Origin: Candidatus Saccharimonadales bacterium
GTDB lineage: Bacteria; Patescibacteriota; Saccharimonadia; Saccharimonadales; UBA10212
Direction of reading: 5' to 3'
Assembly: GCA_038245195.1 (NCBI GenBank)
Contig: JBBRSU010000001.1
Coordinates: forward strand, 121 to 64,120
DNA: 64,000 nucleotides
The notes beneath the pieces were generated by a model that saw nothing but the letters and a program-made list of their open reading frames with translations, searched no databases and was not told where the DNA came from. The translations under genes and the position numbers were made by a program. Each line of letters opens with the position of its first letter. Position 1 is the stretch's first letter. This document shows, in pieces, positions 11,269 through 33,425 of the stretch.

Positions 11269-12180
11269 ATGGATTACGAGCAGGCCGTCGCCGAATTTCT
11301 GGAATACCTCGAGCTAGAACAGAACCGCTCAATGAAAACCATCCAAAACTATAGCCACTACCTTACGCGCCTGAGTGATTTTGCCGGTGAGATTAAGCTA
11401 AACGAAATCGACGATGAGTTAATTCGAAAGTGGCGGATGTGGCTCAACCGTTTGCCGACTAGCAATGCCGACGAGCTATCCAAGACTACTCAGAATTATC
11501 ACCTAATTGCCTTGCGGTCTTTTTTGCGGTTTTGTGCCAAGCGTAACTGGGCCACATTACAACCCGATAAAATTGAGCTAGCCCGGACCAAACGCCCCCA
11601 AGTAACGTTTTTAAACACCGAGGAGTTGGCTCGGCTAACTCAACAACCCGATATCACCAAACTAAACGGCTTACGCGACCGAGCCATTTTAGAGCTTCTA
11701 TTCTCAAGTGGCTTGCGCGTTAGTGAGTTGGTGGGGCTAGACCGAGACCATATTAATCTTAAAAGACGGGAATTTATGGTGCGAGGCAAAGGCCAAAAAG
11801 ACCGACCCATTTTTATCAGTCCCGATGCCGCTGATTGGATCCAAAAATATTTAGACCTTAGGGCAGACAATACTAAACCTTTGTTTATCAGATATAGCGG
11901 ATCTCGGAAAGTGGATAACAGCGGTAACTTTAGCCGCTTAACCGCCCGTAGCATTCAGCGGATGGTGGCCCGTTATGCCCTGCTGGCTGGAATTACTAAG
12001 CACGTGTCGCCTCATACGCTACGCCACAGCTTCGCTACTGACTTATTGATGAACGGGGCCGACTTACGTAGCGTACAAGCCATGTTGGGCCATAGTAATA
12101 TAGCCACAACCCAAATCTACACCCATGTTACCGACCCGCACCTAAAAGCGGTCCACGAAAAATTCCACGCCAAAAAATAG
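11269..12180 (+). CDS. Tyrosine site-specific recombinase, XerC/XerD family
   Basis: 303 aa with an SAM-like N-domain. Catalytic region HTLRHSFATDLL...LGHSNIATTQIYTHV. Confidence 0.9.
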   Translation: MDYEQAVAEFLEYLELEQNRSMKTIQNYSHYLTRLSDFAGEIKLNEIDDELIRKWRMWLNRLPTSNADELSKTTQNYHLIALRSFLRFCAKRNWATLQPDKIELARTKRPQVTFLNTEELARLTQQPDITKLNGLRDRAILELLFSSGLRVSELVGLDRDHINLKRREFMVRGKGQKDRPIFISPDAADWIQKYLDLRADNTKPLFIRYSGSRKVDNSGNFSRLTARSIQRMVARYALLAGITKHVSPHTLRHSFATDLLMNGADLRSVQAMLGHSNIATTQIYTHVTDPHLKAVHEKFHAKK

Positions 12181-12189
12181 GGAGTCAGG

Positions 12190-13578
12190 TCAGCAAGCAC
12201 CCCATTTATAGGTACCGTCACTATACAAACAACCATTACCTGGTGTGCCCCCATCGGCCCTACAGAACCCTGCCGCCTCGTTTGGAATAAATGTCCCATC
12301 TAGCAAGCAACCAAAGACCGTTCTAACTGGAGTAGCACAACTATCTCCACCGCAAGTGGGTGGGCAACCCGGCGGAGTTATACAGCCACCACCGCCTCCA
12401 CCACCGCCTCCGCCTCCGCAGGCATCGCCGCCGCAGGTAGCCGGGCAGCCAGGAGGTGAAATGCAGGCAATGATTGGGCCAGTCACAGGGCCGGCTTGTG
12501 ATGGTGTTGCATCCTGGCAGGTGCTATCTCCACTTGGGTCATTACCAGTATCTACTTGCGGTGTATCAAAATTACCTCGAGCACTTACAGGTACCCTGAA
12601 AAGCTTGCAAATAGTGTTCATAGACCACACCGCATTTATGGGGCTGTTGTATTGGTTAGAGTTATCGAGAATTGCCCTTACTCTTTGTGATATATCGTTT
12701 CCGGTGCCAGTTATATCTAAAACGCTTTGGTTCCCTGTGAGTTGCAGTACTCTGCCCCCAGGATTTGTTGCGACTATAACCCCAGATAACGGTGTGTACA
12801 TAGCGGTTATACGTACGTAATATAAATTACCGGCTGATTGCAGTCCGTTAACTGACGAGACGCAAAACTGGTGTGGTGAGCTGGCATTCGGTAAGGCTAC
12901 GCCACCCGACTGGCAGTTACCGGATACAAATCCTCCATTCGACCCATAGTTCACGGTGTTCGACCCACCACTCGAAGGATACAGAAAGTAATTACGGGAC
13001 TTGCCGGTCAGCGTACTATTATCTGTCGCTGGTGGGGGAACAGGATATATCGCGGTTCGCAGGACTCCTGTGGCGTTCGGGGAAATAGCATCTTCTTTTG
13101 GCAAGAACCCTAAACCCCCTAGGGTTGATGTGTTAGAAGAGTTTTGCCAGCCAAAGTATAAACTATCTAAAGCAGGCTCGGTAATCTGATAAACTCGTGA
13201 TTCGCCGGCCTTTAGTTTAAATAAAATCTGCTTGGGGGCGGTGTCGATTATCACACAAGAGTATCGAACTAGATTATCACCGCTAATATTGCCTCCGGCT
13301 ACAAAGTTATTATTTGTCGGCGGGTCGCAGTTTGGATTTGCACCTCCCCCGGAATTTAGGTATGCTCTAGCATCATTGATACCCGACTCGGCTGCATAGT
13401 ATGCGACCGCCGAGAGCTGGCGATCCAGTGCTCTTTTGACCTCTCGGTTCATCAGGCGCGAAAAGCCCACGCTGACTAAGGCTAAGACTGTCATTAGAAT
13501 CATTACGACCAAAATCGATGCTACACCATTTTGGTCTGATTTGGTTTTCTGCCCGTTCATGTTGCTTATATTTAACAT
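12190..13578 (-). CDS. PilX-N-type pilus-associated protein with a Cys-rich C-terminal module (putative tip protein or adhesin)
   Basis: Last gene of the pilin cluster. N-terminus GVASILVVMILMTVLALVSVGFSRLMNREVKRALDRQLSAVAYYAAESGINDA is PilX_N-like. Start trimmed to ATG 13578, 4 nt after the upstream stop. C-terminus carries a duplicated C-I-S/T-P-P-G-C-P-x-T-C-G-G-D-x-C motif around an 11-Gly run. Confidence 0.65.
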   Translation of the reverse strand: MLNISNMNGQKTKSDQNGVASILVVMILMTVLALVSVGFSRLMNREVKRALDRQLSAVAYYAAESGINDARAYLNSGGGANPNCDPPTNNNFVAGGNISGDNLVRYSCVIIDTAPKQILFKLKAGESRVYQITEPALDSLYFGWQNSSNTSTLGGLGFLPKEDAISPNATGVLRTAIYPVPPPATDNSTLTGKSRNYFLYPSSGGSNTVNYGSNGGFVSGNCQSGGVALPNASSPHQFCVSSVNGLQSAGNLYYVRITAMYTPLSGVIVATNPGGRVLQLTGNQSVLDITGTGNDISQRVRAILDNSNQYNSPINAVWSMNTICKLFRVPVSARGNFDTPQVDTGNDPSGDSTCQDATPSQAGPVTGPIIACISPPGCPATCGGDACGGGGGGGGGGGCITPPGCPPTCGGDSCATPVRTVFGCLLDGTFIPNEAAGFCRADGGTPGNGCLYSDGTYKWGAC

Positions 13579-13582
13579 CTCT

Positions 13583-14176
13583 CTAGAAGGTTTGTAAAAT
13601 CGTTGCACTATAGTCAGCCGTAGCACAATACTGTGTACTATTGTCTGGACCGCTACATTGAGCATTAGGGTCCTGGGCATTTGGGGTCAAGACCGATGGA
13701 TCAGATCCATAAAAAACAATGTGCATGCTAATTGTGCACTGGCCGAACTGACAATTATTAAATTGAATGTTGTTAAGCTGCATGCCAGGATCTAATAATT
13801 CCGCGGCTGTGGATATGTTAGGGGCACCTGGGCCACAAGCATTTACATTTTCTTTCATAATTCCGATATCAGTGCTACTGCCCGGCGTGTACTGGGTACC
13901 CACTTTGTATGTATAACGGTGTTTGCCTATGCAGAAATAGCTTTGTGCTGGGAAGAATTGCGGCGAATTGCCATAAAATTGAATATCATTGGCTATATTC
14001 TGCACAGCATTTCTAGCGGTTTCCTGGGTGTTAGATAAATTTATACCTTTATAGAATAGTTGACTAATTCTGAGGAATGAAGAAACAAAAACTAGTAGCA
14101 CAACGGAAAAAACCGCTGTAGCTATCAATAGTTCTATTACCGTGAAGCCTGCATAGTTTCTTGATTTTTTAGCCAT
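13583..14176 (-). CDS. Minor type IV pilin/pseudopilin
   Basis: MAKKSRNYAG/FTVIELLIATAVFSVVLLVF prepilin signal. Start trimmed to ATG 14176. Confidence 0.75.
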   Translation of the reverse strand: MAKKSRNYAGFTVIELLIATAVFSVVLLVFVSSFLRISQLFYKGINLSNTQETARNAVQNIANDIQFYGNSPQFFPAQSYFCIGKHRYTYKVGTQYTPGSSTDIGIMKENVNACGPGAPNISTAAELLDPGMQLNNIQFNNCQFGQCTISMHIVFYGSDPSVLTPNAQDPNAQCSGPDNSTQYCATADYSATILQTF

Positions 14177-14177
14177 T

Positions 14178-14780
14178 TTAGAACCTATAATATACTTCCG
14201 CTTTTTGGTTCGAACCACCGCCCACCGGAGCCCAACGCACCGCAACTTTATATGCAGTCCGGTTTGGCAGACCCGATGTAGATGACGTTACTTGTGCAGC
14301 AATATCTACATAATAGTCGGTTGTCAAATGTCGCACACATGTATTGCCCCCGTTATCATTGTAGGGAGGAACAGTTAGGGCCTCGGCTTGAGCTTCGTTG
14401 GCAATCCCCGGATTAATCTGCGGCAACCAGGTTGCATCATCCAGCGGGTTTGTGGCACTGTCGAGTAAGCAGAAGTGTAGCTTAGCATTTGGATATGGTG
14501 CAAGTACTGTTCCATTACTATCCGCCAAGAAGTTCGCATCCCATTTAGCTTTATTGTTGTAATAGGTAAACTTGTAGCGACCTTTAAGGTCTGCTACCTG
14601 ATTTTGAATGATATTGAGTGCCTCATTGCGCTCCCGGGCATTAATAGCATTTTCAAGGCTTTTGTTGGCAATGGAATAGGAGGTTCCGATTGCAAAAGAT
14701 GCGATTGCTATAGATACCAGTACTTCAACAAGCGTGTCGCCGACTTTATTGGATTTAAGTTGTATAAATTTTGCAGCCAT
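14178..14780 (-). CDS. Minor pilin-like protein with an atypical +1 residue (G/DTLVEVLVS)
   Basis: MAAKFIQLKSNKVG/DTLVEVLVSIAIASFAIG. The TAATG overlap with the upstream gene favours a start at 14780. Confidence 0.6.
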   Translation of the reverse strand: MAAKFIQLKSNKVGDTLVEVLVSIAIASFAIGTSYSIANKSLENAINARERNEALNIIQNQVADLKGRYKFTYYNNKAKWDANFLADSNGTVLAPYPNAKLHFCLLDSATNPLDDATWLPQINPGIANEAQAEALTVPPYNDNGGNTCVRHLTTDYYVDIAAQVTSSTSGLPNRTAYKVAVRWAPVGGGSNQKAEVYYRF

Positions 14781-15616
14781 TAACAAACCTTGAATTCCAG
14801 CTTCGTGGAGGGGTTAAAGCCACCACCACTTAAAATTGTAAATAACGCCGTTTCTGAATTACTGTCATTCTGAAAACAGATTTCCCAATCGCTGAGTGCA
14901 GGAGGCTCTACTAAGCCGAAGCCAAATGTGCAAGGAGCTTTATTTTCAATACAATTAACTGTTGTAGTTGTTATCCCGCCCGCATCATTGCCTAGATTAT
15001 ATTGGTAGGCTTTTAAATTAGTTTCGCCGTTCTGACCGATTGCCGTGTCAGTGTTTAAACTCAAGTAAAAGCCGGCCAGGTGGCTATTATTTCCGGCAAT
15101 TCCGCTAGATTTTACAATGCTCCTAACTGTGGTGCCGGGTCCTAGGCTATATTTTTCTGTTAACTCCGCATTGCCAGTATCTCCGCCTGATGAGCCTGCA
15201 GCTGGGACGCTACCGCTGTCTTTGATGTTGGAGACTAGGTCTCCCGAACCCAGGGTTCTTTTTCCAAAGACGGAATAAGCGTAGACATTGGTAGCCGGGC
15301 TATCGACAAATTGGATCGCTTTACCCAGAAAAATACAGTTAGGTGCAGCCCCTGCTGATCTTGCACCATTCATAATCTGCACGGCCGAGCCACCTAAATC
15401 ACAATGGTTATTTGTTATGGTGCCATATGGAAAACCATTAGAAACGTCATCAAACCAACTTTGCATTTTTGACTGTAAGTCGTGCATGTTCTGGGTGAAA
15501 CGTTGCTTGCCATCTTGGCCGGATAAAAAAGTCATCGATACCCCAACTAAGATAATTGATATCGCCATGACGATCATTACTTCAATTATCGTGAAGCCCT
15601 CCGTCACGCGCTGCAT
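14780..15616 (-). CDS. Minor type IV pilin/pseudopilin
   Basis: MQRVTEG/FTIIEVMIVMAISIILVG prepilin signal; 278 aa. Confidence 0.75.
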   Translation of the reverse strand: MQRVTEGFTIIEVMIVMAISIILVGVSMTFLSGQDGKQRFTQNMHDLQSKMQSWFDDVSNGFPYGTITNNHCDLGGSAVQIMNGARSAGAAPNCIFLGKAIQFVDSPATNVYAYSVFGKRTLGSGDLVSNIKDSGSVPAAGSSGGDTGNAELTEKYSLGPGTTVRSIVKSSGIAGNNSHLAGFYLSLNTDTAIGQNGETNLKAYQYNLGNDAGGITTTTVNCIENKAPCTFGFGLVEPPALSDWEICFQNDSNSETALFTILSGGGFNPSTKLEFKVC

Positions 15617-15665: not shown

Positions 15666-16487
15666 TTAGGTAATCAGGTTTTTGTACCAGTTCAGAAGCG
15701 AGTCACCAAAAACTACTAGTACCCCGGTAGCAATGATTAGGAAAGGTCCATAAGGCAGCTTGCTGGTCATCTTCTTATCGCCCCTGGTTAAAGCCGGAAC
15801 AATTACAGCAGTTCCGATCAATGAAGCCAGGAAAAGCATCGCCATACTTTTCGCAGGATCGGCTAAGAGCGTTCCGGTTATAAGACCCAGACGCACGTCA
15901 CCGAAACCTATCCATTTACCCTTTGATACTGTAAATAAAAGAAAAAAGATGCCACTAGAGATGGCTACTGAAAATATCCAAAGCAGAAGTAGATGCCAAG
16001 GCCTCGTCCCAAACACAATAATAAAGACCAACCGCCCGACGAAAGCCACTAAAAATGTGGGGTAGATTATCTTATTAGGTAGTAGCATCCAGTGCAGATC
16101 ATAAACAGCCAGAGCCAATAAACCCACTGAGCAAGTTAGCCATGTAGCCAATAAGAGCCATTGTCCGCCTGTATGGACAGTTACCGGCCAAAATAAGTAA
16201 CTTCCCACAAATACAAACCCAGCAACTAGTTCAACGATTGGATATTGGAGCGATATTGGCTTTTTGCAATATCGGCACTTCCCCCTCAGAATCAGCCAGC
16301 TAAATATAGGCACCAAATCATACCAAGCCAGTTCGTGCTTACATTGAGTACACATAGAGCGTCCATTTATGATAGAAGGCTTAAAGTTCTTCTTCTTATT
16401 CTGTTCATGAAGTCGCCAAACAAGGGCGTTTACGAAACTGCCTGCACATATGCCTAGGAATAAAATATATAAGGCTACGAGAATCAT
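15666..16487 (-). CDS. pilD: Prepilin peptidase/N-methyltransferase (A24 family)
   Basis: 273 aa polytopic membrane protein. Cys pairs CTQCKHEL...CRYCKKPI in the cytoplasmic loop. GFGDVRLG Asp motif. Confidence 0.9.
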   Translation of the reverse strand: MILVALYILFLGICAGSFVNALVWRLHEQNKKKNFKPSIINGRSMCTQCKHELAWYDLVPIFSWLILRGKCRYCKKPISLQYPIVELVAGFVFVGSYLFWPVTVHTGGQWLLLATWLTCSVGLLALAVYDLHWMLLPNKIIYPTFLVAFVGRLVFIIVFGTRPWHLLLLWIFSVAISSGIFFLLFTVSKGKWIGFGDVRLGLITGTLLADPAKSMAMLFLASLIGTAVIVPALTRGDKKMTSKLPYGPFLIIATGVLVVFGDSLLNWYKNLIT

Positions 16488-16520
16488 TAGCCTTATCCTA
16501 GCAGAAATTGCCTTTCAATA

Positions 16521-16552
16521 GAAAAAGACCGTTTTGTTAAACGGTCTTTTTC
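16521..16552 (-). terminator. Rho-independent terminator/attenuator downstream of pilA
   Basis: Perfect 12-bp stem aaaagaccgttt/aaacggtctttt with a 4-nt loop, flanked by T runs, 17 nt after the pilA stop. Confidence 0.6.
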
Positions 16553-16568
16553 TCTTATTATTACGATT

Positions 16569-17021
16569 CTATGAATCGACGCAACGTGGCTGAATTGCTC
16601 CAGTTGTCTCAATGTTGAAAGTAACTGCAAAACCACGGGCTGTAGGAGTTCCTCCATAACCTGTCCCCGCAGCATTACAGGCTTTATTAAATTGCCAATA
16701 TGCTGAAACTGTGTCAGCTGGAGTCCCGGAAGTATAGCTGACTGTTGCTAGCTGACCGAGGCGAGTAGTATCGAGATCAACGTTTCCTACTCCAATTGAT
16801 GAACAGGTTCCTGTCACACCGTTGTGATTGGCTAAGCAGGTGTTTACGGCCGCCGCAATCTGGGCTGCATCATTGTTGCGCTGGGTATTACGGCTGTTTC
16901 TTTGTAGTGCCGGTACCGCCAAAAGCACGATAAGCAGAATGACAGCAGCTATGGCCAATACAATCATCACTTCGATGATCGTGAAGCCCTGTTCTCGCTT
17001 TTGTTTATATAGATTTTTCAT
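16569..17021 (-). CDS. pilA: Major type IV pilin
   Basis: MKNLYKQKREQG/FTIIEVMIVLAIAAVILLIVLLAVPALQRN; 150 aa. Has its own promoter, an SD (aaggggg) and a terminator. Start trimmed to ATG 17021. Confidence 0.85.
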   Translation of the reverse strand: MKNLYKQKREQGFTIIEVMIVLAIAAVILLIVLLAVPALQRNSRNTQRNNDAAQIAAAVNTCLANHNGVTGTCSSIGVGNVDLDTTRLGQLATVSYTSGTPADTVSAYWQFNKACNAAGTGYGGTPTARGFAVTFNIETTGAIQPRCVDS

Positions 17022-17114: not shown

Positions 17115-18329
17115 TTAACGGACATTCAGCTTGTTTGACAATCCGTATATTGGTAACAGTACGGCCGCTACTATAATTAGTGCCATAATTCCCAGTAAAA
17201 TCATCAATACCGGCTCGATTATCGTTGATATCGCTCGAATCTCATTATCAACCTCCCTCTCATAATAGTCGGCAGTCTTCCCTAGCATGCTTTCAAGCGA
17301 ACCGGACTGCTCGCCTATCCTTATCATATTAGGAACCAATGAAAGGAAATTTGGATCGCCGTCAATCGCTTCAGACAAAGCCTTGCCTCCCTTAACCTTT
17401 TCGGAAGCCGCCTCTATAGAATGGCTTAACTGGACATTATTAACCGCCTCAGAGACTATACTCATCACTTGTAAAAGTGGTACGCCACTAGAGACCAGGG
17501 TTTCGGCTGTCCGGGCAAACCTAGCCATATATACCTTCATGAATAAGCGCCCGATCGGCCAGGCTCGCATCTTGAACTTATCAACCACTTCTTTACCCGG
17601 CCCGGTCCTAGCCCAGCGAGTCGTGAAAAATATCCCTACACCAAACAGAAGGAGGATTAACCACCAAAAATGACTAATTATTTTTGAAACAAATAATAGA
17701 GCGATAGTTAAAAACGGAAGTTTGGCCCCTGGTATATCCCTATATATGTCCTGCACGTGGGGTAGGACAATAACAATCATAAATGTTACAACCGCAATCA
17801 TAACCACAATGACTAACAGTGGGTAGATCAAAGCCCCTCGCACCTTAGATATAATTTCGGCGTCTTTCTCTTGCTGATTAGCTAATCTTTCTAAGGATTT
17901 ATCAAGCGTACCGGAGGCTTCGCCGGCCTCGACCATACTCGTATAGACCGTGTTAAAGACTTTTGGATATCGACCCAGAGCCTCAGAAAAAGCCGAGCCG
18001 GCTTCCACATCCGCTATAACCTTCTGAATGACCACCTTTAATGCTTTACTGGAAGTCTGCGACTCAACGTTTCTAAGTGCCTGAACTAATGGCAGTCCGG
18101 CATTAATAAGGGTCGACATTTGCCTGGAGAAAATAACCTTATCTTTGGTTTTTACTCGGTTTGAAAAATTACCAAACATACCTGCTTCATCAGCCAGTGT
18201 TATCTCCAAAGGTGCATAGCCTTGCTCCTTAATGGCTTTGGCTGCTGATTTTTCATTCTCGGCCTGCACCTGCGAAGTTATTCTTTGGCCACTGGCTGGA
18301 TCACGAGCCACAAATTTGTAAGTGAGCAT
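17115..18329 (-). CDS. pilC: Type IV pilus platform protein (GspF/PilC family)
   Basis: 404 aa with two T2SF repeats and three TM segments. Confidence 0.9.
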   Translation of the reverse strand: MLTYKFVARDPASGQRITSQVQAENEKSAAKAIKEQGYAPLEITLADEAGMFGNFSNRVKTKDKVIFSRQMSTLINAGLPLVQALRNVESQTSSKALKVVIQKVIADVEAGSAFSEALGRYPKVFNTVYTSMVEAGEASGTLDKSLERLANQQEKDAEIISKVRGALIYPLLVIVVMIAVVTFMIVIVLPHVQDIYRDIPGAKLPFLTIALLFVSKIISHFWWLILLLFGVGIFFTTRWARTGPGKEVVDKFKMRAWPIGRLFMKVYMARFARTAETLVSSGVPLLQVMSIVSEAVNNVQLSHSIEAASEKVKGGKALSEAIDGDPNFLSLVPNMIRIGEQSGSLESMLGKTADYYEREVDNEIRAISTIIEPVLMILLGIMALIIVAAVLLPIYGLSNKLNVR

Positions 18330-18333
18330 TCTT

Positions 18334-19434
18334 CTAGCCTCTCATCAAACGATCTAGTTCATCTAAGTCAACTGCGTAGTTTCGGGCTTCGTCGTAGCTG
18401 ATAACGCCCGTATGTATAAGGTTAACCAGGGTACGATCCATGCTTTGCATGCCATATTCCGCACCGGTTTGAATAACAGCCTCCAGCTGATAACTCTTAC
18501 CTTCTCGAATAATGTTTCTGACTGCCGGGGTTGCCACTAGAATTTCCGCAGCTGCTAATCGGCCGCCGCCAAGTGCTGGTATTAATCGCTGTGACACAAT
18601 TGCCTGAAGCATATTGCCCAGCTGGGCCCTGACCTGGGGCTGTTGATGCGGTGGGAAAACGTCTATCATGCGGTCTACAGTCTGTGATGCACTATTGGTG
18701 TGCAGTGTAGCCAAAACCAAATGTCCGGTTTCGGCAATGGTAATGGCAGCCGAAATAGTTTCTAAATCGCGCATTTCGCCTATAAGCACCACATCGGGGT
18801 CTTCACGCAAAGCAGAACGGAGAGCTGACGAAAAACTGAAAGTATCGTAATGAACTTCGCGTTGGACTACTAAAGAGCGTTTTGATTTGTGGGTATATTC
18901 AATTGGATCTTCAACTGTAATAATATGGCTGGCCCGCTCACTGTTAATCTTATCGACCATAGCAGCCAGGCTCGTGGACTTACCAGAACCGGTCGGCCCT
19001 GTGACCAAAACTAGCCCACGTGGATATTCAGTGAACTTGTTAACCACCTGTGGTAGCCCTAAGTCCTCAATAGTTCTAATTTTATTAGGGATTAAGCGTA
19101 AGGCAGCCGCTAGATTACCCCGCTCATGGAAGGCATTTACCCTAAACCGGCCTAAATCACCGAAAGCAAAGCTAAAGTCGAATTCTTTATCTCTAAGTAG
19201 AATCTGCTTTTGATCGTCGTCCAACAAGCTAAAGATTAATTCCTCGACCCCTTTTTCATCCAGCGGTGTTTGACCATGGGGAGTGAGTGCTCCATCCAAA
19301 CGCAACATTGGAGGCATACCGACTTGTAAGTGCAGGTCAGATGCGTCCTTTTTAACGACTTCTTCTAATAAAAGCTCTACCTTTGGCGATTGGCCAGCTT
19401 GTGGTTGTGGTGTTGGATTTTGTTGCGGTTGCAC
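18334..19434 (-). CDS. pilT: Type IV pilus retraction ATPase
   Basis: 366 aa. Walker A GPTGSGKST, IITVEDPIEY, GHLVLATLHTNSA. PilT-sized, with no N-terminal GspE_N domain. Confidence 0.9.
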   Translation of the reverse strand: MQPQQNPTPQPQAGQSPKVELLLEEVVKKDASDLHLQVGMPPMLRLDGALTPHGQTPLDEKGVEELIFSLLDDDQKQILLRDKEFDFSFAFGDLGRFRVNAFHERGNLAAALRLIPNKIRTIEDLGLPQVVNKFTEYPRGLVLVTGPTGSGKSTSLAAMVDKINSERASHIITVEDPIEYTHKSKRSLVVQREVHYDTFSFSSALRSALREDPDVVLIGEMRDLETISAAITIAETGHLVLATLHTNSASQTVDRMIDVFPPHQQPQVRAQLGNMLQAIVSQRLIPALGGGRLAAAEILVATPAVRNIIREGKSYQLEAVIQTGAEYGMQSMDRTLVNLIHTGVISYDEARNYAVDLDELDRLMRG

Positions 19435-19464: not shown

Positions 19465-21279
19465 TTATGCGTCCGAGCTAGCTACGCGGTCCACTTCCAG
19501 TAAAGTTGTTTGACCAGCCAGTGCCTTCAGATAACCGTCTTGGCGCATAATTACCATGCCCTGCTCTTGGGCCTTCCTTTGAATTATGGAACTAGTAGAG
19601 CGTTTGATGACCAGGTCCTGGATAGCCTCGGTAACTTCAAAAACTTCATACAATCCCATACGCCCAGAATACCCAGAAGGATTATCGGGGGTAACTTTAC
19701 CCTTAAGCAAAGTATAAGCGTTTTGGGTGGCCAGAGGCAAGGATTTATAACCCAAGTCGTTCGCTACTTTAGTAACTTCTTCGTGTGTCTTGGGGAGAAG
19801 ATTGCTGACAATGTGCTTTATAGCAGCAGTTTCGACCGAATTAGATTTATATGATTCACCATCCGGCACGTTTCTTCTAACTAAACGCTGACCAATCACG
19901 GTGTGAACTGTAGATGCAATCAAAAAAGGCTCGATATCCATATCTAGCAAACGCGGCAGAATCCCGGCAGCTGAATTAGTGTGAAGCGTGCTAAAGACTA
20001 AGTGACCTGTCAAAGCCGCTTGTACAGCTAAATTGGCTGTTTCCTTATCACGAATCTCGCCAACCATAATCACATCAGGATCCTGGCGGAGAATAGACCT
20101 CAGACCACTAGCAAAAGTTAGCCCTACCGCAGGATTAACTTGGATTTGGTTTACTCCATCTATTTTATATTCAACCGGATCCTCTAGGGTAACTATATTT
20201 ATGGAATCATCCTTTATTTCCTGAATCATGGCGTACATACTGGTACTCTTCCCAGACCCGGTTGGCCCAGAAGTTAATATCATGCCATAGGGGTTTTTAA
20301 GACCCTGGCGAATAGCCCTGAGTGCCCGTCCGGTGTAACCCATGGATTCAAGATTAAGACTAGTACCGGTTTTGTCTAGTAGCCGAATAATGACTTGTTC
20401 GCCCCACACCGTTGGGCTAATTGCAATACGAAGATCAATCACCATATCCTCAACCTTGATGCTAAATTGCCCGTCCTGCGGAATACGATGTTCATCAATT
20501 TTTAGATTTGATAAGATTTTTACACGACTAATCAGGGCCGGCTCGGTACTTTTTGGAAGTCTCATTATTTCACGAAGTACACCGTCAATCCGTGTTCTAA
20601 TTCGTAGTTCTTTTTCTAATGGTTCGATATGTATGTCGCTGGCCCGATTTTTAGCGGCATATTCCATAATGGCTGATAAGGCCTTGCTGATCGGTGAATC
20701 CTCGACAATAACTTGGATTTTTTTGGTTTCTTTTGGATTAACTTCACCCTTGAGTTGTATATCCTCTTTTGACTCAGTTGTAGCCAGCTCTTCAAGGCCA
20801 GCTAGCATTGAGCTGACACCTTTTTGAATATTTCGCTCGTACTGCTTTAACATCCGCCTAATACCGGACTCACTGGCCGCATAAACCTGGAGTGGCCGGC
20901 CGACCTTATTGCTTAGAAAGTCAACAGCCTGCAGGTTACTGGCGTCAAGCATTGCAACAACCAGCTTCTCTCTCATGGTGCCTAGTGGAACAGCCATATA
21001 GAAGTTAGCCGTGTCCTTACTAATCAGCTCGAGTACCTTTTGTGATATCGGTGGGGCTTCGGTTAGGTTTACATATGGAATTTTATTTACTATCGCACTA
21101 GCCCGAGTGAATTGCTCATCATTCATCTCCTTCTCTTCGATTAGCATACTGAAGAGGGGTTTGTGTTCTTTTTGAGCCTTCGCTTTATACAGTTCTAGTT
21201 TGTCTTCAGTAACTACTCCATCTTTGAGTAGCTGCTCCTCAATTTGGTGCTGGGTCGTTTCAGATAACAATACACTCAT
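19465..21279 (-). CDS. pilB: Type IV pilus assembly ATPase (GspE/PilB family)
   Basis: 604 aa. N-terminal T2SSE_N-like domain, Walker A GPTGSGKST, GHLVFSTLHTNSAA. Confidence 0.9.
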   Translation of the reverse strand: MSVLLSETTQHQIEEQLLKDGVVTEDKLELYKAKAQKEHKPLFSMLIEEKEMNDEQFTRASAIVNKIPYVNLTEAPPISQKVLELISKDTANFYMAVPLGTMREKLVVAMLDASNLQAVDFLSNKVGRPLQVYAASESGIRRMLKQYERNIQKGVSSMLAGLEELATTESKEDIQLKGEVNPKETKKIQVIVEDSPISKALSAIMEYAAKNRASDIHIEPLEKELRIRTRIDGVLREIMRLPKSTEPALISRVKILSNLKIDEHRIPQDGQFSIKVEDMVIDLRIAISPTVWGEQVIIRLLDKTGTSLNLESMGYTGRALRAIRQGLKNPYGMILTSGPTGSGKSTSMYAMIQEIKDDSINIVTLEDPVEYKIDGVNQIQVNPAVGLTFASGLRSILRQDPDVIMVGEIRDKETANLAVQAALTGHLVFSTLHTNSAAGILPRLLDMDIEPFLIASTVHTVIGQRLVRRNVPDGESYKSNSVETAAIKHIVSNLLPKTHEEVTKVANDLGYKSLPLATQNAYTLLKGKVTPDNPSGYSGRMGLYEVFEVTEAIQDLVIKRSTSSIIQRKAQEQGMVIMRQDGYLKALAGQTTLLEVDRVASSDA

Positions 21280-21293
21280 TTAGCCTTCAGATC

Positions 21294-21560
21294 TTATTGA
21301 GTACTACCCTGAAAAGGCTGGTTATTATCGCTGCCTCCAATTTGGATTAATTGTGTAGGGTTAAGGGCTTTATTATTAAAAATCCCTGAGTAGTCAGTAT
21401 CATTTTGGACATCTGGGAAGGTTGAGCTTATTTTATTGACAACTGGTACTTTGATAGGATTTTTCTTAGGAGTCCCAAATATTATTCCAGAAAGTATAAA
21501 TGATAATATAGCCGCTACACACGCCGATAGCCCAATCAGTAGCAGATCTTTTCGTTTCAT
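21294..21560 (-). CDS. Small membrane-anchored pilus-operon protein (occupies the PilP position)
   Basis: 88 aa with one TM helix. Start overlaps the upstream stop. Confidence 0.5.
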   Translation of the reverse strand: MKRKDLLLIGLSACVAAILSFILSGIIFGTPKKNPIKVPVVNKISSTFPDVQNDTDYSGIFNNKALNPTQLIQIGGSDNNQPFQGSTQ

Positions 21561-22237
21561 TACTTCACCTCCTTAGTAGCCTTTAAGTCTAGGCTCTTCG
21601 CAGGCTGATAGTATGTGGTCATACCTACTGTAAGTTTGAGTTTATTATCACTTCCACTAATTTCTAGAGTATTAAGATCAAATGGCCGAATTGACCGCTC
21701 AAAATCTTGGAAAAGTTTGGAGGCATCATTAAAATTAGTTGAGCCTTCAAACGAAAAGGTCATAGACTTATAGCTTGGTTGGCTCTGAGGTGCATCCGAA
21801 TTAGCGGAAGGATCGTCGTTCACCGTTAAAGAATTGATAGTTACCCCACGCTCAGTAAGAACTTTCTCAGTACTGGTTGCAAGAGCTGGGGCGTCATATT
21901 TACTTGGCAACGCATCGAGTACAATCACAGCGTTTTGGCCGTCTAAATTCGTTTTCCCGTTTACAGACCCACCCAATATATTTGGATTTTGATTAGCGAA
22001 TACGTTCTTATATTGGCTAACTAAAGTTTTAGCAGAGTCATAATTTGTTTTTAAAGTTGCCGCTACTTCTTTGCGAGCGTGCAATGCTCTTCTTTGATAC
22101 AGACCCTTAGTGACCATAGATTTGGTGGCAAATAGACTGAATACTACGACTACAACCGTTATGACTATTACAGCCATCATGCTCGACTGGTTTTTATCTA
22201 TTTGCAAGTGCTTGGCCGAAACCTTTTTCTGTGCCAT
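21560..22237 (-). CDS. PilO-like pilus alignment protein
   Basis: 225 aa. Has an N-terminal TM helix (MMAVIVITVVVVVFSLF) and follows pilN with an overlapping start and stop. Confidence 0.55.
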   Translation of the reverse strand: MAQKKVSAKHLQIDKNQSSMMAVIVITVVVVVFSLFATKSMVTKGLYQRRALHARKEVAATLKTNYDSAKTLVSQYKNVFANQNPNILGGSVNGKTNLDGQNAVIVLDALPSKYDAPALATSTEKVLTERGVTINSLTVNDDPSANSDAPQSQPSYKSMTFSFEGSTNFNDASKLFQDFERSIRPFDLNTLEISGSDNKLKLTVGMTTYYQPAKSLDLKATKEVK

Positions 22238-22959
22238 TACTGCCCTCCTTGCTGTTGCTGAGATTGAGTTTTTGTCTGGCCGTTGAATAGAGGACTAGCA
22301 CTTGGCGCATTTAAAACAGATCTGGTGGTTGTTTCTTGTGGCACATTCAATTTCACACTGTTAGATCCAGTCAATAGTGCAGGGTCTAAATTACAATCAA
22401 TAACGTAGGATGCGACCTTATCATCCCTGTCAATCTTAGTCAAAACCACACCGCTAAAGGCATTCTTTTGATTCTGTGCATTACTAGAGTCAGACGAACT
22501 AGAAGTATAGGTAGTGAATTTAAGAGTGTCGATAAACTTGTTAACGCTTTCAACTTTATCGGCAGTACCACTAAACTCGATGATGCCTGTAGTTGTATCT
22601 AGGCTCAGTTTACCGACGTTAACGCTTGTAGGTGTAATCTGAGGCAGGTAAGAGAACAGCCGCGAGCCATATCGCTTTTGCCCGTGAAGACTCGGTAAAG
22701 AACTAAGTTGATTTTGGATTGTTAAGATTTTATCCAAATCCGGAATATTATTAAGTTTTTTACTGTAGCTATTTATTTCATTCTTAGCACTGTCTAGCAG
22801 TCCTTTTTGTAGTACATTAACTACCAAGAAGCTGACGACGAAAATAGCTATCGCAACACCAGAAGCCAAGAAAGACAATGTATAAACTAATCGTTTGACA
22901 TGTTGCTGATTGTCAAACGCCAGTTTTACATCCGGAAGTAGGTTAAACTGGACAGCCAT
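22237..22959 (-). CDS. pilN: PilN-like pilus alignment protein
   Basis: Begins MAVQFNLLPD (the conserved xNLLP motif), then a TM helix. Follows pilM. Confidence 0.7.
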   Translation of the reverse strand: MAVQFNLLPDVKLAFDNQQHVKRLVYTLSFLASGVAIAIFVVSFLVVNVLQKGLLDSAKNEINSYSKKLNNIPDLDKILTIQNQLSSLPSLHGQKRYGSRLFSYLPQITPTSVNVGKLSLDTTTGIIEFSGTADKVESVNKFIDTLKFTTYTSSSSDSSNAQNQKNAFSGVVLTKIDRDDKVASYVIDCNLDPALLTGSNSVKLNVPQETTTRSVLNAPSASPLFNGQTKTQSQQQQGGQ

Positions 22960-22960
22960 T

Positions 22961-24001
22961 TTATACTTTCCTCTCCGCTAATCCACAAGCCACAGAAAAA
23001 TGGTTAGAGATACTTAGTAGCTCGTTCTGACGGCTTGATGGAAATGATACATTGCGCCAAGCGTTGCCGATTTCTACATTGATTCCAAATTTATTAGCAA
23101 TATATAAGGGGAACTCTGGTAGCGTAGATGCTCCTCCTGTTACAATAATCCTCTCTAGTTTCTGGTTTGTGTAACGGCTTTGGAAAAATTTAATTGATTT
23201 TTCAACTTCAGCTACTAGATTATCTACAGTGTTGATGATAGCGTTATACACCCTACCCTCAAGCTTGTCCTTACTGACACCAAACTTATAAACAAACTGA
23301 GTGGCTTGGGCAGCATCAACTCCCAGGCCAGCAATTGCTGAACGGATTATGGCTTCAGAACCAATTGGAATTGAACGAGTTAAGCGCGGGGCGCCGCTAA
23401 TAACTATGATCAAATCGGTCGAACGGGCTCCCACGTCTAATACCATCTGTGGTTGAGTGGCATCTGGTGCCACAATTGAACGCATAACCGCGAAAGTATC
23501 GGGTTCGAACGCAATTACATTAAAGCCAGCGTTCTCAAGAGTATCCAGTCGCTCCTCTATGTACGCATTGGATACACTGGAAAGTAAAACTTCGGCCTTG
23601 GTCGAATCTTTTGGCGAGTCCCCCAAAAGAGCCCAGTCAATTTTAGATTCTGCCAAGGGCGTAGGGATAAATGAATCAGCTTGATATCTGATAGTTTTAG
23701 CTAACTCCGCGGAAGAAAGTTTCTCGATATCGACAACCGTCGTGAAGACACGTGTTGATGGAACACCAACTGCTACGTTCTTAGTAGTTATCCCGGCCTG
23801 TTTACAAAGCTGAACTACAGCTTGAGCCAGTTTTTGCTGGTCGGCTTTAGCGTCGCTAACTGCAAGAGTACCGGCAACAGGAGCTGAACCATAACGATCC
23901 AACGTCTTCACTGGTGGTGCACCACGCAACTGAACGACCCTAATCGAGGATGTGCCGATATCCAGTCCAAAAAATTCTGATACCCCACTCAGTATGTCCA
24001 T
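22961..24001 (-). CDS. pilM: PilM, actin-like ATPase of the pilus alignment complex
   Basis: 346 aa. FGLDIGTSSIRVVQL and IIVTGGAS motifs of the FtsA/PilM fold. Confidence 0.85.
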   Translation of the reverse strand: MDILSGVSEFFGLDIGTSSIRVVQLRGAPPVKTLDRYGSAPVAGTLAVSDAKADQQKLAQAVVQLCKQAGITTKNVAVGVPSTRVFTTVVDIEKLSSAELAKTIRYQADSFIPTPLAESKIDWALLGDSPKDSTKAEVLLSSVSNAYIEERLDTLENAGFNVIAFEPDTFAVMRSIVAPDATQPQMVLDVGARSTDLIIVISGAPRLTRSIPIGSEAIIRSAIAGLGVDAAQATQFVYKFGVSKDKLEGRVYNAIINTVDNLVAEVEKSIKFFQSRYTNQKLERIIVTGGASTLPEFPLYIANKFGINVEIGNAWRNVSFPSSRQNELLSISNHFSVACGLAERKV

Positions 24002-24081: not shown

Positions 24082-27000
24082 TTAGAAAACTGGGGGTAAG
24101 CTATACAGTGCTTGGATATTACTATAATTAGGAGAAAAATATGGCTGGCCAATTATCATTGCAGGTATATAGTTGAACACCTCCGCCGGTTCTGTGGTAA
24201 TTCCGTTTAAGTCGTTCCCGAGCGGACCCATAGTGCCGTGTTCCCGGTTGAGCCTAACAGTCTGGGCTAGTATCGCCCCGTTTACTGTAAGTTTGTTATT
24301 CGGGCAAAAACCATCACAGGTTGAGAAAATTCCATTTGTAGCGTCAAGTGGCTGGGCAACATATAAGCCATCTATTTGATTAACGTTGTAATTAACGGTG
24401 ATATTCCCCTGAACAATTAATGAGAAGTAAGGCACATTACTGCGAGTGGATGCGCGGTAGGTCGGTGCGTAGCAAATATTATTAGCAATGGTAACATTAC
24501 CGCTTACGTAAAGTGTGAATTGTTCACCTTCTTGAATATCACCCCCTGGGCGGCTACTACTGCAATCACTGCCAGTAAGAGAAGTTAGCGTAACGTTCCC
24601 AGTAGCAGTGTACTGGGTCTGGGTACTAAGGCTATCGACATTTATTGTTGGGTTAGATCCCAGATCAGTTTGGCCAGGAAGCCTAGTCTTTAAGAAGAAA
24701 TCGTTCACGCAATGCCAATCGGTTTCAGCACTTTGGTTAAGTAGACCGCCCATTTCTCCCACTACGCCTGGGGCGGCAAATATTTCGTTGTTTTTACTAT
24801 AAAATCCAACATTGTTGCCAGATACGTTATATCCAAGTGCCAAGACACCGAAATCGCCGCTCGAGCCAGTTCCAGCACCCTGGTTGGCGTAAGCTCTCAA
24901 GCCCGCATTGTATGGGTTGGTGTTGATGGGGCTTATATAGCTTAAGGTCCCTGCCGTACACTTTCCGGTCGCATCACCAAAACCGCCCCCAACATCTACA
25001 TCACCCTGGGTAGCTTGGAAGTAAGGTCTAGTTTGAGGGGTACCGCTCCCAGAACAACCGACCGAGGGAGTGCCTGGAGGACCCTGCAGAGTAACTGTGA
25101 AATCACCAGTCCAATCCTCTCTTATCGAAACCGTGACTGTAACATCAGTATCAACCGGATTTCCCGACGAACCTCCGTTCCAGGCGTTAAATCCACTGCT
25201 CGTATTCTGAGGGTTCGGGCTTAATACTACGAAACCTGGGTTGGCTGTGGCGGCAAAAGTATAACCGCCGTCCGACCCGTTTAATGGCCAACCGCTACTT
25301 CTGCCTGCATCGTTAGTGAAATGAACGGTGACGTTGCCTTTCCCATTTTGTCCAGGCTCCGCATCGGTGGCGTATCCGCCGGCATTGCAGCCGACCTGAA
25401 GACAAGAGCTTATAGTGTCCGTGGCACCGGACTGTGCAACTCCGTCCACAATAAGTTGGAAGTTATACGAATTACTGGGCCACATCCCGGGGATCCACAT
25501 ATCGAAGGTCTTAACGGTTTTTTGGCCTATGTGCGTGGTCGGATCTAGCGCTACGGTTGTGCTATAGGTATGATTATCCCCCGCGTTGCCGGCATTCGTT
25601 ATTACGACCGAAACCGGCACAGGGTTAGCGCTTGGGGTTGGGTCATTAACAGTTAATCTGGTTTCTTCGCAGCTGGCGTCAATGCTCGATGTGCCAGGTG
25701 GCGGCCCGGTCTTCAAGATGAGCGTACATTTAGTACCAAAAGCTGGCTGAGTACTTTGCAGCATTTGGAATGTAATAGTTTTTGTAGTGTTAGGTGTGCT
25801 CGGAGCCGTAAAGGTAAAGTTACCTGTCGAATAATAAGACCCGGATCTAGTAAGGGTATTTACACTATTTGGCGAGTTTGGTGGATTACCATCAACGCTA
25901 GTCGACCATTGATAGGGTGGGCTCTGTGATGGATCCCATGTCGCTGAGCCCGTGTTTTTAAACGCCACACCAAACTGAACCGTGGCGTTGGGTGCCAACT
26001 GAGAATAAGTCTTGGAGCTTTGGGCAGTACCGGCATTTAATGAACAAGCTGCGTCATTCTTATTGTTACAGGCGTTGCCCGTGCTCCCTAAAGCATCGAA
26101 CTGGTCGAAAGGTAATCTAACTTGAACCAGGTTTCTATAAGATAAGTCCTTGAAGTCCAGTAGGTATCTATGAGAATTATCGTAATTGAATCTGAGCGGA
26201 AGCGAGTTCTCAAGATTTTGATTTGCAACCGGATTCCAGTCAGGGCCCACCAGTTTGGGAGCGGGGCCTCCCGCCGCACCCCAGCCAAAATTTGGATCAG
26301 TCCGGCCGTCTTGAAGCACTTCGGCCGTCAAGTCTGTATCCTGCTGGACATAGTCAGGATATAACGTGCCTGCGTTGGGGCGAGTTGAATAAACCTTGTA
26401 ATCGATATCGTAGATGCCTATTTGAACTGGGCTCGGTATGAGACTAGGATCCTCGTCGCAGAAAGGTGCGAATTGCACGCCATAATCCCAGTTGTACGAG
26501 CCGCTTTGGGCACCAGAACCATAAATCCCGACCGTGGTTTTGCCGTTTGTTCCTGCCCCTTGATTAACATTCCTCGATAATCCAACGTATGGCTGATAAG
26601 CCGAAGGGCCTGTCAACGTGACACTTAGCTTCCAGGCTTTAATTGTGTTACATGTATTTGGGTCGCCGCACGGGTTTGTCATAGTAGCTGTAAAGTAATA
26701 AACGATGTAGTTTGTATGACCAGGATGCGACGAACTATCGGCGGCGGTCCGAGCAGGAATATTAATTATTACGTTATGGCAGTTGGTATTGCCGTCCGCA
26801 GTATTACTGGTCGGAGTATTAAACCACCAAGCATTGTCGGAATTATTGGTTTCATCAGGATCTGTATTGGTCAACTGATAACCAACCTGTGGCGGCCCGC
26901 TATTGGTTGCGATGTCTAGCGGACAATTTTCACCTCCCCCATTCACGATTGTCAATTTAGCACCTACCCCTACCGGCACATAAACTTTTGCATTCGAGTT

Positions 27001-27228
27001 AGTCCCGTCATATTCACCCCTACCCACTACAAACCATGGCTGATAACCTGACGAGCTGCCGTGTACATTTGCTGAGTTTTGCGTGGGTGACGATGCTTGT
27101 ATTGGTGTGGTCGTGCTGTAAGCCAGGGCTTTCTTTTGGAATATAACTGACCCGACTAAAAAAGATACTAGGGCTATAAATAGTAGTCCCGTGAATTTTA
27201 AGATATTTTTTGGCATTATACTTCTCAT
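24082..27228 (-). CDS. Large (1048 aa) secreted protein encoded at the head of the pilus operon; function unknown
   Basis: N-terminal signal/anchor KFTGLLFIALVSFLVGSVIF. Asn/Gly/Thr/Ser/Pro-rich with many Cys. The C-terminal third looks beta-helical (VSGNVTIANNICY...LIVQGNITVNYNV). ATGA overlap with the upstream gene. Confidence 0.7.
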   Translation of the reverse strand: MRSIMPKNILKFTGLLFIALVSFLVGSVIFQKKALAYSTTTPIQASSPTQNSANVHGSSSGYQPWFVVGRGEYDGTNSNAKVYVPVGVGAKLTIVNGGGENCPLDIATNSGPPQVGYQLTNTDPDETNNSDNAWWFNTPTSNTADGNTNCHNVIINIPARTAADSSSHPGHTNYIVYYFTATMTNPCGDPNTCNTIKAWKLSVTLTGPSAYQPYVGLSRNVNQGAGTNGKTTVGIYGSGAQSGSYNWDYGVQFAPFCDEDPSLIPSPVQIGIYDIDYKVYSTRPNAGTLYPDYVQQDTDLTAEVLQDGRTDPNFGWGAAGGPAPKLVGPDWNPVANQNLENSLPLRFNYDNSHRYLLDFKDLSYRNLVQVRLPFDQFDALGSTGNACNNKNDAACSLNAGTAQSSKTYSQLAPNATVQFGVAFKNTGSATWDPSQSPPYQWSTSVDGNPPNSPNSVNTLTRSGSYYSTGNFTFTAPSTPNTTKTITFQMLQSTQPAFGTKCTLILKTGPPPGTSSIDASCEETRLTVNDPTPSANPVPVSVVITNAGNAGDNHTYSTTVALDPTTHIGQKTVKTFDMWIPGMWPSNSYNFQLIVDGVAQSGATDTISSCLQVGCNAGGYATDAEPGQNGKGNVTVHFTNDAGRSSGWPLNGSDGGYTFAATANPGFVVLSPNPQNTSSGFNAWNGGSSGNPVDTDVTVTVSIREDWTGDFTVTLQGPPGTPSVGCSGSGTPQTRPYFQATQGDVDVGGGFGDATGKCTAGTLSYISPINTNPYNAGLRAYANQGAGTGSSGDFGVLALGYNVSGNNVGFYSKNNEIFAAPGVVGEMGGLLNQSAETDWHCVNDFFLKTRLPGQTDLGSNPTINVDSLSTQTQYTATGNVTLTSLTGSDCSSSRPGGDIQEGEQFTLYVSGNVTIANNICYAPTYRASTRSNVPYFSLIVQGNITVNYNVNQIDGLYVAQPLDATNGIFSTCDGFCPNNKLTVNGAILAQTVRLNREHGTMGPLGNDLNGITTEPAEVFNYIPAMIIGQPYFSPNYSNIQALYSLPPVF

Positions 27229-32590: not shown

Positions 32591-32680
32591 GGAGAGGTGG
32601 CCGAGCGGTTGAAGGCGCTGCTCTCGAAAAGCAGTATACCCGCAAGGGTATCGAGGGTTCGAATCCCTCCCTCTCCGCCA
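32591..32680 (+). tRNA. tRNA-Ser (anticodon CGA)
   Basis: Acceptor GGAGAGG/CCTCTCC, anticodon stem-loop CTGCT-CTCGAAA-AGCAG, long variable arm, T arm GAGGG-TTCGAAT-CCCTC, encoded CCA. Confidence 0.9.
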
Positions 32681-32688
32681 TGATAATC

Positions 32689-33309: not shown

Positions 33310-33425
33310 GCGACAAGAAAAAGACCTTAATATTACTTCTCTTATTAGCCCTAAGCATTGGCCTGCTAATCTACGCCAAAACCCATGTTGGGCCCGGCTT
33401 TGTTAAACAGCTTTCAGCTAACTAG
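33306..33425 (+). CDS. 39-aa single-TM peptide translationally coupled to the sortase gene
   Basis: ATGA overlap with the sortase stop. MSDKKKTLILLLLLALSIGLLIYAKTHVGPGFVKQLSAN*. Below the track cutoff. Confidence 0.35.
   Translation: MSDKKKTLILLLLLALSIGLLIYAKTHVGPGFVKQLSAN

Follow-up and report, generated by a model that had tools for sequence, protein, structure and literature searches.

A candidate PilX1-type minor pilin of Saccharimonadales with four-cysteine loops, a polyglycine tract and a fast-evolving C-terminal cap

Saccharibacteria and other candidate phyla radiation (CPR) bacteria live attached to host bacteria, a lifestyle in which type IV pili are important or even essential (PMC11623550, PMC9894109, PMC10633639). 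In the cultured Saccharibacterium TM7x, locus one encodes PilC1, B1, T, M1, N1, O1, PilD and five pilins. PilX1, the largest minor pilin of this locus, has been proposed as a tip protein of the essential, twitching-competent T4P-1 (PMC11623550). Modular type IV pilins are represented by PilB (vWA) and PilC (lectin) of Streptococcus sanguinis, CofB of enterotoxigenic Escherichia coli (ETEC) and TcpB of Vibrio cholerae (PMC8179133). The element that recognises the host is currently sought among the large PilX-type minor pilins, whose variable ends are undescribed. The subject of this work is one such candidate in a stretch of 64,000 nucleotides from a Candidatus Saccharimonadales bacterium (assembly GCA_038245195.1, contig JBBRSU010000001.1, positions 121 to 64,120), referred to here as the window. 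The gene lies at 12190-13578 on the minus strand and is taken, from its open reading frame (ORF), its translation and a homologue search, as a minor pilin of the GspK/PilX class (PilX1 type).

A tip minor pilin carrying a variable module on a linker is already known (PMC8179133) and has been anticipated for Saccharibacteria (PMC11623550). New here is an undescribed cassette in three related lineages, consisting of a four-Cys 16-mer (duplicated in two of them), a run of eleven Gly that is conserved and yet slips, and a shared mini-cap.

Architecture and conservation of the C-terminal extension

The stop codon of the pilin gene occupies 12190-12192, and residues are numbered throughout from the Met at 13560. 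Beyond the core of the protein, residues 349-456 form a C-terminal extension of about 108 aa, all of it encoded on the minus strand. A Pro/Gly-rich connector, QDATPSQAGPVTGPIIA (residues 349-365, 12466-12516), leads from the core to the first loop and has a moderate to low predicted local distance difference test score (pLDDT). It is followed by copy 1 of the four-Cys loop, CISPPGCPATCGGDAC (residues 366-381, 12418-12465), the Gly11 tether (residues 382-392, 12385-12417), copy 2 of the loop, CITPPGCPPTCGGDSC (residues 393-408, 12337-12384), and a 48-aa four-Cys cap (residues 409-456, 12193-12336), which ends in SDGTYKWGAC. The two loops and the Gly run together take up 129 bases. In each loop the Cys are spaced C-x5-C-x3-C-x4-C, so that four of the 16 residues (25%) are Cys. 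The number of Cys is even in every unit of the protein, with 6 in the core and then 4, 4 and 4. Apart from Gly11, no long run of a single amino acid occurs in those reading frames of the window that reach 150 aa or more.

The sequence-only reading, made from the letters of the window before this analysis, had described a 16-aa unit duplicated on either side of the Gly run, and every coordinate and sequence of that description was reproduced. The two copies are identical at 13 of 16 residues and at 31 of 48 bases (65%). When the Cys/Gly/Pro-rich C-terminal region of 112 aa was shuffled 2000 times with its composition kept, the top self-match of a 16-mer stayed at or below 10 of 16. Because 13/16 residues match while only 31/48 bases do, the duplication is judged to be old and held at the protein level, being neither a recent repeat nor an assembly duplication. 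The glycines are encoded by a mixture of GGA, GGC and GGT codons, and Tandem Repeats Finder (TRF) reports an imperfect 12-nt repeat with 2.8 copies, 90% matches and the plus-strand consensus CCACCACCGCCT. The earlier statement that the run is not a nucleotide homopolymer is thus borne out.

The same architecture is found in other assemblies. A second assembly (L006, Logan SRR19962014) carries the identical gene sequence (1371/1371 nt), and a sister species, whose protein is 77% identical, shows the same order of elements on contigs L001-L005 from five other sequencing runs. Among the protein homologues, the order of loop, Gly run, loop and cap is confined to the window protein and this one 77%-identical cluster (P0002, P0122, P0123). 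A third lineage, L011 (Ga0081539_10013697, a JGI metagenome contig), was found by a scan with the back-translated motif. Its gene is cut by the contig end, and synteny is kept by an XerC-like gene (82% identical) and an NDK gene downstream. L011 reads beta-domain, Gly11, CTDPPGCPPTCGGDSC as a single loop, and a 44-residue tail with two Cys and the end GALCD; its loop is 13/16 to 14/16 identical to the window loops. Since L011 has one loop, following its Gly11, the conserved cassette is defined as Gly11, four-Cys loop and cap, and its counterpart in the window protein is copy 2, which follows the Gly run in all three lineages. Copy 1 is an extra loop acquired before the window lineage and the sister species separated, because copy-specific residues are shared by both species (CP-A-TC with Ala at position 9 in copy 1 as against CP-P-TC, and Ser15 in copy 2).

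These occurrences bear directly on whether the duplicated module and the Gly run are an artefact of assembly or sequencing. The region is repetitive and GC-rich (57% GC as against about 45% around it), and the two assemblies with identical sequence might share one sample. However, the copies share just 65% of their nucleotides, the reading frame is intact, and the architecture recurs in six further contigs from six other samples and two other lineages, with synonymous differences throughout. In addition, the Gly8 allele described below was seen in two independent runs and Gly11 in three. With the identical gene in a second assembly and the architecture in five other sequencing runs, an artefact is excluded for practical purposes and retains a negligible probability, in agreement with the sequence-only reading.

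The Gly tract slips, gaining or losing 9-nt units between near-identical strains. In the five sequencing runs of the sister species, Gly11 is present in L001, L004 and L005 and Gly8 in L002 and L003. The tract of L004 and L005 consists of GGTGGCGGT three times and then GGCGGC, and that of L001 is also Gly11, with a single T-to-C difference. L002 and L003 have GGTGGCGGT twice and then GGCGGC. Over 5032 aligned nt, L002 and L004 differ by one 9-nt unit GGTGGCGGT and one single-nucleotide polymorphism. Comparison of the tract among strains, which had been proposed together with the suggestion that its length could change by slippage, therefore gives Gly11 against Gly8, one 9-nt unit apart. A phase-variable on/off contingency locus was considered and rejected. 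Its repeats have units of 9 or 12 nt, and an in-frame 9-nt indel is the sole change observed; since the tract changes are all in frame, it is the length of the protein that varies and not its expression state.

Proportions of nonsynonymous (pN) and synonymous (pS) differences were computed by region against the 77%-identical sister species. With pS about 0.76, synonymous sites are saturated. The value of pN was 0.118 in the core, 0.10 in the two loops with the Gly run, and 0.335 in the cap. For Gly11 alone, pN was 0 and pS 0.64, with 11/11 residues kept. Copy 1 is identical at 14/16 residues (pN 0.056, pS 0.48), the two loops together keep 27/32 residues and all eight Cys, and the connector region (residues 346-365) is identical at 14/20. 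In the cap, all Cys and the end SDG-x-Y-x-WGAC are kept. As pN is comparable and synonymous sites are saturated, purifying selection on the loops and Gly run is, by this measure, equal in strength to that on the core. By the same measure no part of the protein evolves faster than the cap, at about 3 times the core. Gly11 is present in three lineages of saturated divergence, and that all three have exactly eleven Gly argues for stabilising selection on a tether length near eleven.

Searches of domain databases with the extension gave little. Pfam (E up to 10) returned nothing except a meaningless SPRR2 match (E 7), and NCBIfam (E up to 1) had no match. No extra module with a recognisable functional domain was seen by Pfam, NCBIfam or PDB match. 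An exhaustive HMMER search of copy 2 and the cap against 1.84 billion representative proteins found its own cluster only, with a reach limited enough that P0019, P0020 (relatives whose ends resemble the cap) and L011 were missed. Word-indexed protein searches, made with the C-terminal alignment and with the L011 fragment, missed even the source proteins of the queries and carry no weight on absence. The back-translated motif scan gave 3 matches in 185,579 species-representative genomes, all of them out-of-frame chance matches in high-GC Actinobacteria or Chloroflexi; 2 in metagenome contigs, one by chance and one real (L011); and 0 in viral contigs (IMG/VR). The only true-frame copy of the loop from the genome, metagenome and viral scans is that of L011.

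In structure prediction the cap and the loops behave differently. In the full-length AlphaFold2 model, which had P0019 and P0020 in its alignment, the cap forms a small domain of its own, made of beta-hairpins and one short helix, with pLDDT 86-89. When the extension was folded alone, the same topology was obtained for the cap at lower confidence, but the mean pLDDT of 45.5 made the model unusable for a fold search. The sequence-only reading had called the loop Cys-knot-like. A cystine knot has six Cys and three disulfides, one of which threads the ring formed by the other two. The present unit has four Cys in 16 residues, pLDDT below 50 and no match to a knottin or growth-factor family, and the description is not upheld.

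The low confidence in the loops is also what would be seen if the region were a low-complexity spacer, a largely disordered filler separating cap from core, with no specific function in its exact sequence or duplication and with the duplication and Gly run as products of replication slippage. In both models pLDDT is below 50 for residues 362-406. There is no match to a database family, the tract is polymorphic in length (8 vs 11), and in relatives this position is taken by linkers that differ in length and are polyproline or otherwise low in complexity. Such constancy of sequence and length is, however, not expected of pure filler: 27/32 loop residues and all eight Cys are kept while synonymous sites are saturated, the Gly run is kept 11/11 with pN 0 and pS 0.64, the copy-specific residues are conserved between species, and L011 has the same Gly11 with a 13/16 to 14/16 identical loop. 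A mere spacer is therefore considered unlikely.

Each loop might otherwise hold a Cys4 metal site (Zn, Cu or a cluster) in the manner of metallothioneins or zinc knuckles, which would give a metal-dependent fold or a sensing or scavenging role at the tip. Known zinc ribbons and knuckles use CxxC...CxxC spacing, and that of the loop is unlike it. Furthermore, the protein is predicted to be extracellular, its six conserved core Cys are typical of structural disulfides, no metal-binding family was matched in Pfam (E up to 10) or NCBIfam (E up to 1), and the positional counterpart of the loop in relatives has two Cys only, which alone are insufficient for a metal. Set against these points are the four invariant Cys per 16 residues amid small residues (Gly, Pro, Thr, Asp) and the lack of a confidently predicted disulfide-based fold. 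A metal site is thus regarded as very unlikely.

Sequence search of the PDB with the extension returned non-significant matches to antibody hinges and linkers only. The best of them, 1za6_B (E 0.05), is an engineered immunoglobulin G (IgG) hinge followed by a Gly/Ser linker, an analogy and not a homologue. It raises the case of a hinge-like cross-link, in which the CP-x-TC cores would form interchain disulfides between pilin copies or with a tip or host protein, locking a tip oligomer or attaching the tip by thiol-disulfide exchange. CPPC-type hinge cores do make interchain disulfides in antibodies, and the tip pilins CofB and TcpB are trimers (PMC8179133). However, the match is compositional and not significant, L011 has a single loop, and an even number of Cys per unit fits closed pairs within each loop. 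In addition, a GspK-class pilin is generally thought to be single in its tip complex, as in the GspI-J-K heterotrimer (also PMC8179133). Cross-linking of this kind is judged highly unlikely.

Homologues and assignment of the pilin

The homologue search returned 196 proteins, and all those with a source name are labelled Saccharibacteria or Saccharimonadales. Most are about 330-380 aa long and end shortly past the last conserved core Cys (C348 in the window protein), with no extension. The closer relatives, a subclade of 37-50% identity, have C-terminal extensions of 100-440 residues with diverse contents, including Ig/PKD-like beta domains, Cys-rich tails, a vWA domain and a HINT-type domain. 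The vWA domain (PF00092) is found in P0108 (554 aa). In P0052 (784 aa), a C-terminal HINT/intein-like domain follows a Ser/Thr/Gly-rich region ending in Gly5; it has precomputed matches to PF07591 and PF13403 and the sequence ...GGGGGCGCFVAGTKIL...VHNKIPCD. For a pilin at the pilus tip, a HINT domain capable of self-processing would be out of the ordinary. The terminal modules very often follow a homopolymeric linker, which is P6-P11 in eleven sequences examined and G8 in P0007; named homologues with polyproline linkers are P0004, P0005, P0008, P0010, P0017, P0019, P0024, P0025, P0030 and P0081. Beside the linker, P0004, P0019, P0020 and P0021 carry a two-Cys loop, C-x-D-[PT]-x-A-x-N-[FY]-G-x(4)-C-x-Y, which is not recognised by Pfam.

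P0019 and P0020 end in homologues of the window protein's cap (hhalign probability 92.5%, E 4.7e-7, 49 columns; BLASTP E 9e-4), with all four Cys and the terminal [W]GAC in common. In these two relatives, what comes before the cap is a polyproline linker and the two-Cys loop CNDPxAxNYGGxPPC, the last Cys of which aligns with the last Cys of the four-Cys loop. The four-Cys 16-mer may therefore be a positional counterpart, and possibly a derivative, of the two-Cys CNDP-type loop. These findings divide the earlier remark that the module was not recognised from described pilins. It stands for the 16-aa loop, which remains unmatched among described domains, and falls for the cap, which has homologues in P0019 and P0020, and for the uniqueness of the arrangement, since Gly11 and a single loop recur in L011.

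The product of the pilin gene is 462 aa long if translation starts at ATG 13578 and 456 aa if it starts at ATG 13560, the call of the Logan assembly. The former, 4 nt past the stop codon of the preceding minor-pilin gene, is the probable start codon. It is favoured because P0004, P0012, P0013, P0014, P0019 and P0021 all keep the peptide MLNIS-x-M, which sits just upstream of the start as called. The NCBI record of the same protein (P0121, 491 aa, on a 287-kb contig) has a start called much farther upstream, overlapping the preceding minor-pilin gene. On the plus strand, an antisense ORF of 191 aa (12245-12820) contains a Pro11 run that is the mirror image of the Gly11 tract; it was rejected as a real gene, as homologues and codon-level conservation are all on the minus strand.

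At the N-terminus, alignment and AlphaFold2 show a prepilin-type segment with a hydrophobic alpha-1 helix (residues 11-69, 13354-13530, minus strand), predicted at pLDDT of about 96 from an alignment of 74 homologues. The junction of leader and mature protein is MNGQKTKSDQNG/VASILVVMILMTVLALVSVGF and reads QNG/VASIL. Gly12 (codon 13525-13527) is invariant in the 74 aligned homologues and is assigned to position -1 of the site cleaved by PilD. Mature position +5 is Leu17 and not Glu; it is Ile or Leu in close homologues. With VASIL at +1 to +5, there is neither Phe1 nor Glu5, and the protein has no N_methyl match in Pfam, while the three upstream pilins do. Members of the GspK/PilX class typically lack Glu5. 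Residues 70-348 (12517-13353, minus strand) form a beta-rich globular core according to AlphaFold2 and the alignment, and pLDDT exceeds 90 over residues from about 11 to 300. Of the six core Cys, C78, C102, C216, C233, C318 and C348, all but one are invariant in the aligned homologues, and the remaining one is conserved to at least 90%. Among the structural matches of the core found by Foldseek, none of them significant, are lectin domains, proteases of the subtilase type and jelly-roll capsid proteins of viruses, a picture resembling what is reported for TM7x PilX1 (PMC11623550). Many homologues have a precomputed match to PilX_N (PF14341). By position, N-terminal features and family, the protein is assigned to the GspK/PilX1 class, with the reservation that curated thresholds were missed and that the globular fold is not GspK-like.

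The pilus operon and its surroundings

A complete type IV pilus operon on the minus strand ends with the pilin gene, which follows three minor-pilin genes and lies downstream of pilD and the major pilin. Upstream of the pilin gene lie minor pilin 3 (13583-14179; weak ComGE, GspI and GspJ matches in NCBIfam, N_methyl E 4.5e-6, cleavage site AG/FTVIE), the GspI-like minor pilin 2 (14178-14786; ORF and family matches) and the GspH-like minor pilin 1 (14780-15616; GspH E 3.5e-6, EG/FTIIE). The protein is thus the last and largest of a four-gene minor-pilin set that runs GspH-like, GspI-like, ComGE/GspI/GspJ-like and then the pilin itself. The gene order given by the sequence-only reading is confirmed, and a member of the GspK/PilX class in this place would cap the tip complex.

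Continuing upstream, the prepilin peptidase PilD is encoded at 15666-16487 (A24_N_bact E 1e-30, Peptidase_A24) and a candidate major pilin at 16569-17021 (N_methyl E 2.2e-8; QG/FTIIEVM). Pfam matches identify PilC (17115-18329), a PilT-like ATPase (18334-19434), PilB (19465-21279), PilN (22237-22959) and PilM (22961-24001), and a 225-aa ORF without family assignment (21560-22237) lies in the PilO position. The operon opens, directly upstream of pilM, with the gene for a 1048-aa secreted protein (24082-27228). At its N-terminus this protein carries a hydrophobic stretch resembling a signal; Ser, Thr, Asn and Gly are abundant in it, and it has no match at all in Pfam or NCBIfam. It may be a surface protein associated with the pilus. 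At 16520-16553, between the genes for the major pilin and PilD, is a hairpin with a perfect stem of 15 bp and a loop of 4 nt, AGAAAAAGACCGTTT-TGTT-AAACGGTCTTTTTCT. It looks like an attenuating terminator, which would hold transcripts of the major pilin above those of the minor pilins downstream.

Convergent with the pilin gene is a gene for an XerC/D-type tyrosine recombinase (11269-12180, plus strand; Phage_integrase E 1.6e-42), which serves as a synteny marker common to the window, L001-L006 and L011. The stops of the two genes are 9 nt apart both in the window (12180-12190) and in the sister species (L001 4829-4839), and there is therefore no space for separate terminators. In L011 (360-3797), about 2.5 kb with three other ORFs is inserted between them. 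Farther away, a sortase gene (32680-33309, plus strand) adjoins a gene for a DUF11-repeat surface protein (33422-34192, minus strand). The pair (32680-34192) suggests that a second system of surface display, one dependent on sortase, is encoded close to the pilus locus. The pilin as a sortase substrate was considered and rejected, as it has no LPXTG.

Proposed function and comparison with known systems

Taken together, the material is read as a modular tip pilin in which the loops are disulfide-stapled spacers and, with a flexible Gly tether, present a variable cap; this composite reading is considered moderately probable. After processing by PilD at Gly12, the protein would sit on top of the minor-pilin tip complex, and the extension would project from the pilus tip. 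Each loop would be closed by two internal disulfides, probably an outer C1-C4 and an inner C2-C3 pair; closure within the loop is proposed because the number of Cys is even in each unit and because relatives have a two-Cys loop at the same position. The loops would then be small, protease-resistant, Pro-rich beads. Gly11 would be a flexible tether between them, replacing the stiff polyproline rods of relatives, and its length would be held near eleven by selection despite slippage of the DNA. The rapidly evolving cap would be the distal element likeliest to touch the surface of the host cell. On this account the feature would be a stalk and hinge, the polyglycine version of the polyproline linkers of relatives, and neither a catalytic nor a knotted domain. 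An adhesive role of the extension or cap is put forward more tentatively, as a possibility somewhat short of an even chance. The earlier suggestion of a tip adhesin with a flexible hinge is plausible, and fits the tip-protein proposal (PMC11623550) and the concept of modular pilins (PMC8179133).

Several observations weigh against the stalk-and-hinge account or against the class on which it builds. PilX_N (PF14341) matches the protein at E 9.8e-4 and 19.5 bits, below the cut-off of 25.5, in the N-terminal helix only. The NCBIfam GspK model matches at E 0.002 and 17.8 bits, far from its cut-off of 130, in the N-terminal 60 residues only. Foldseek found no significant relative of the model in the PDB, GspK included. 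The operon appears to correspond to TM7x locus one, and the protein to PilX1, by locus content as published and not by sequence comparison. In the loops, the AlphaFold2 values below 50, whether full-length or extension alone, give no confident structure, and the relation of the four-Cys loop to the CNDP-type loop is positional only, hhalign having left that part unaligned. No disulfide oxidoreductase was found among the 50 window ORFs scanned against Pfam, which include nearly all those that reach 200 aa, a result that is uninformative for the whole genome. Finally, disulfide connectivity, tip location and binding are all putative.

A further proposal is that the tether is tunable, so that in-frame slippage between Gly8 and Gly11 and, in the longer run, exchanges of flexible polyGly for rigid polyPro among orthologous tip pilins adjust the reach, force response and host choice of the cap. 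This is considered quite unlikely; if true, it would be a case of a length-variable hinge serving host-range adaptation at the type IV pilus tip of an episymbiont.

The finding is a small local variation that leaves the general picture of modular pilins unchanged and will not surprise the specialist. Its interest lies in an environmental Saccharibacteria clade that appears to have exchangeable C-terminal cassettes on homopolymeric linkers of its putative tip pilin, with one clean case of a polyglycine tether conserved in length over long times yet slipping between strains. The extension of about 108 aa may also be a compact test case for linker mechanics and for disulfide-stapled spacers at the pilus tip.

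Among described systems, phage g3p and the IgG hinge, where small disulfide-bonded units at a filament or arm end are joined by flexible Gly-rich tethers or by Cys-Pro hinge cores, offer a functional analogy only. The linkers of filamentous-phage g3p are (E)GGGS repeats and not pure Gly, and they are encoded by imperfect nucleotide repeats. The Gly tract of the pilin is like them in being encoded by such repeats, with no homology. The antibody hinge, likewise not homologous, has interchain disulfides, whereas disulfides within each loop are predicted for the pilin. Compared with GspK of the type II secretion system and PilX of the type IVa pilus, which top the GspI-J-K and PilV-W-X tip complexes, the protein is likewise last in an H-I-J-K-like series, lacks Glu5 and is larger than its partner pilins. 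Unlike the pilin studied here, GspK has an alpha-domain insertion where the present protein is beta-rich, and it has no C-terminal extension; the matches of the present protein to these families are below threshold and limited to the helix.

A close counterpart is PilX1 of TM7x (Nanosynbacter lyticus), which belongs to the same phylum, comes from a locus of the same operon content and is the largest pilin of that locus. Both proteins are seen as a lollipop of a helix and a beta-rich globular domain of jelly-roll or lectin-like character, missed by standard domain searches. In contrast, no extension of Cys loops, polyglycine and cap is described for PilX1 (PMC11623550), and orthology is suggested by synteny. 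From the modular pilins the protein differs in that its added element is tiny (about 108 aa) and is built of parts absent from domain databases. It resembles them in carrying extra C-terminal modules on a linker that would be presented at the filament tip, and it has, as they do, a separable C-terminal module past the core, one that varies among homologues.

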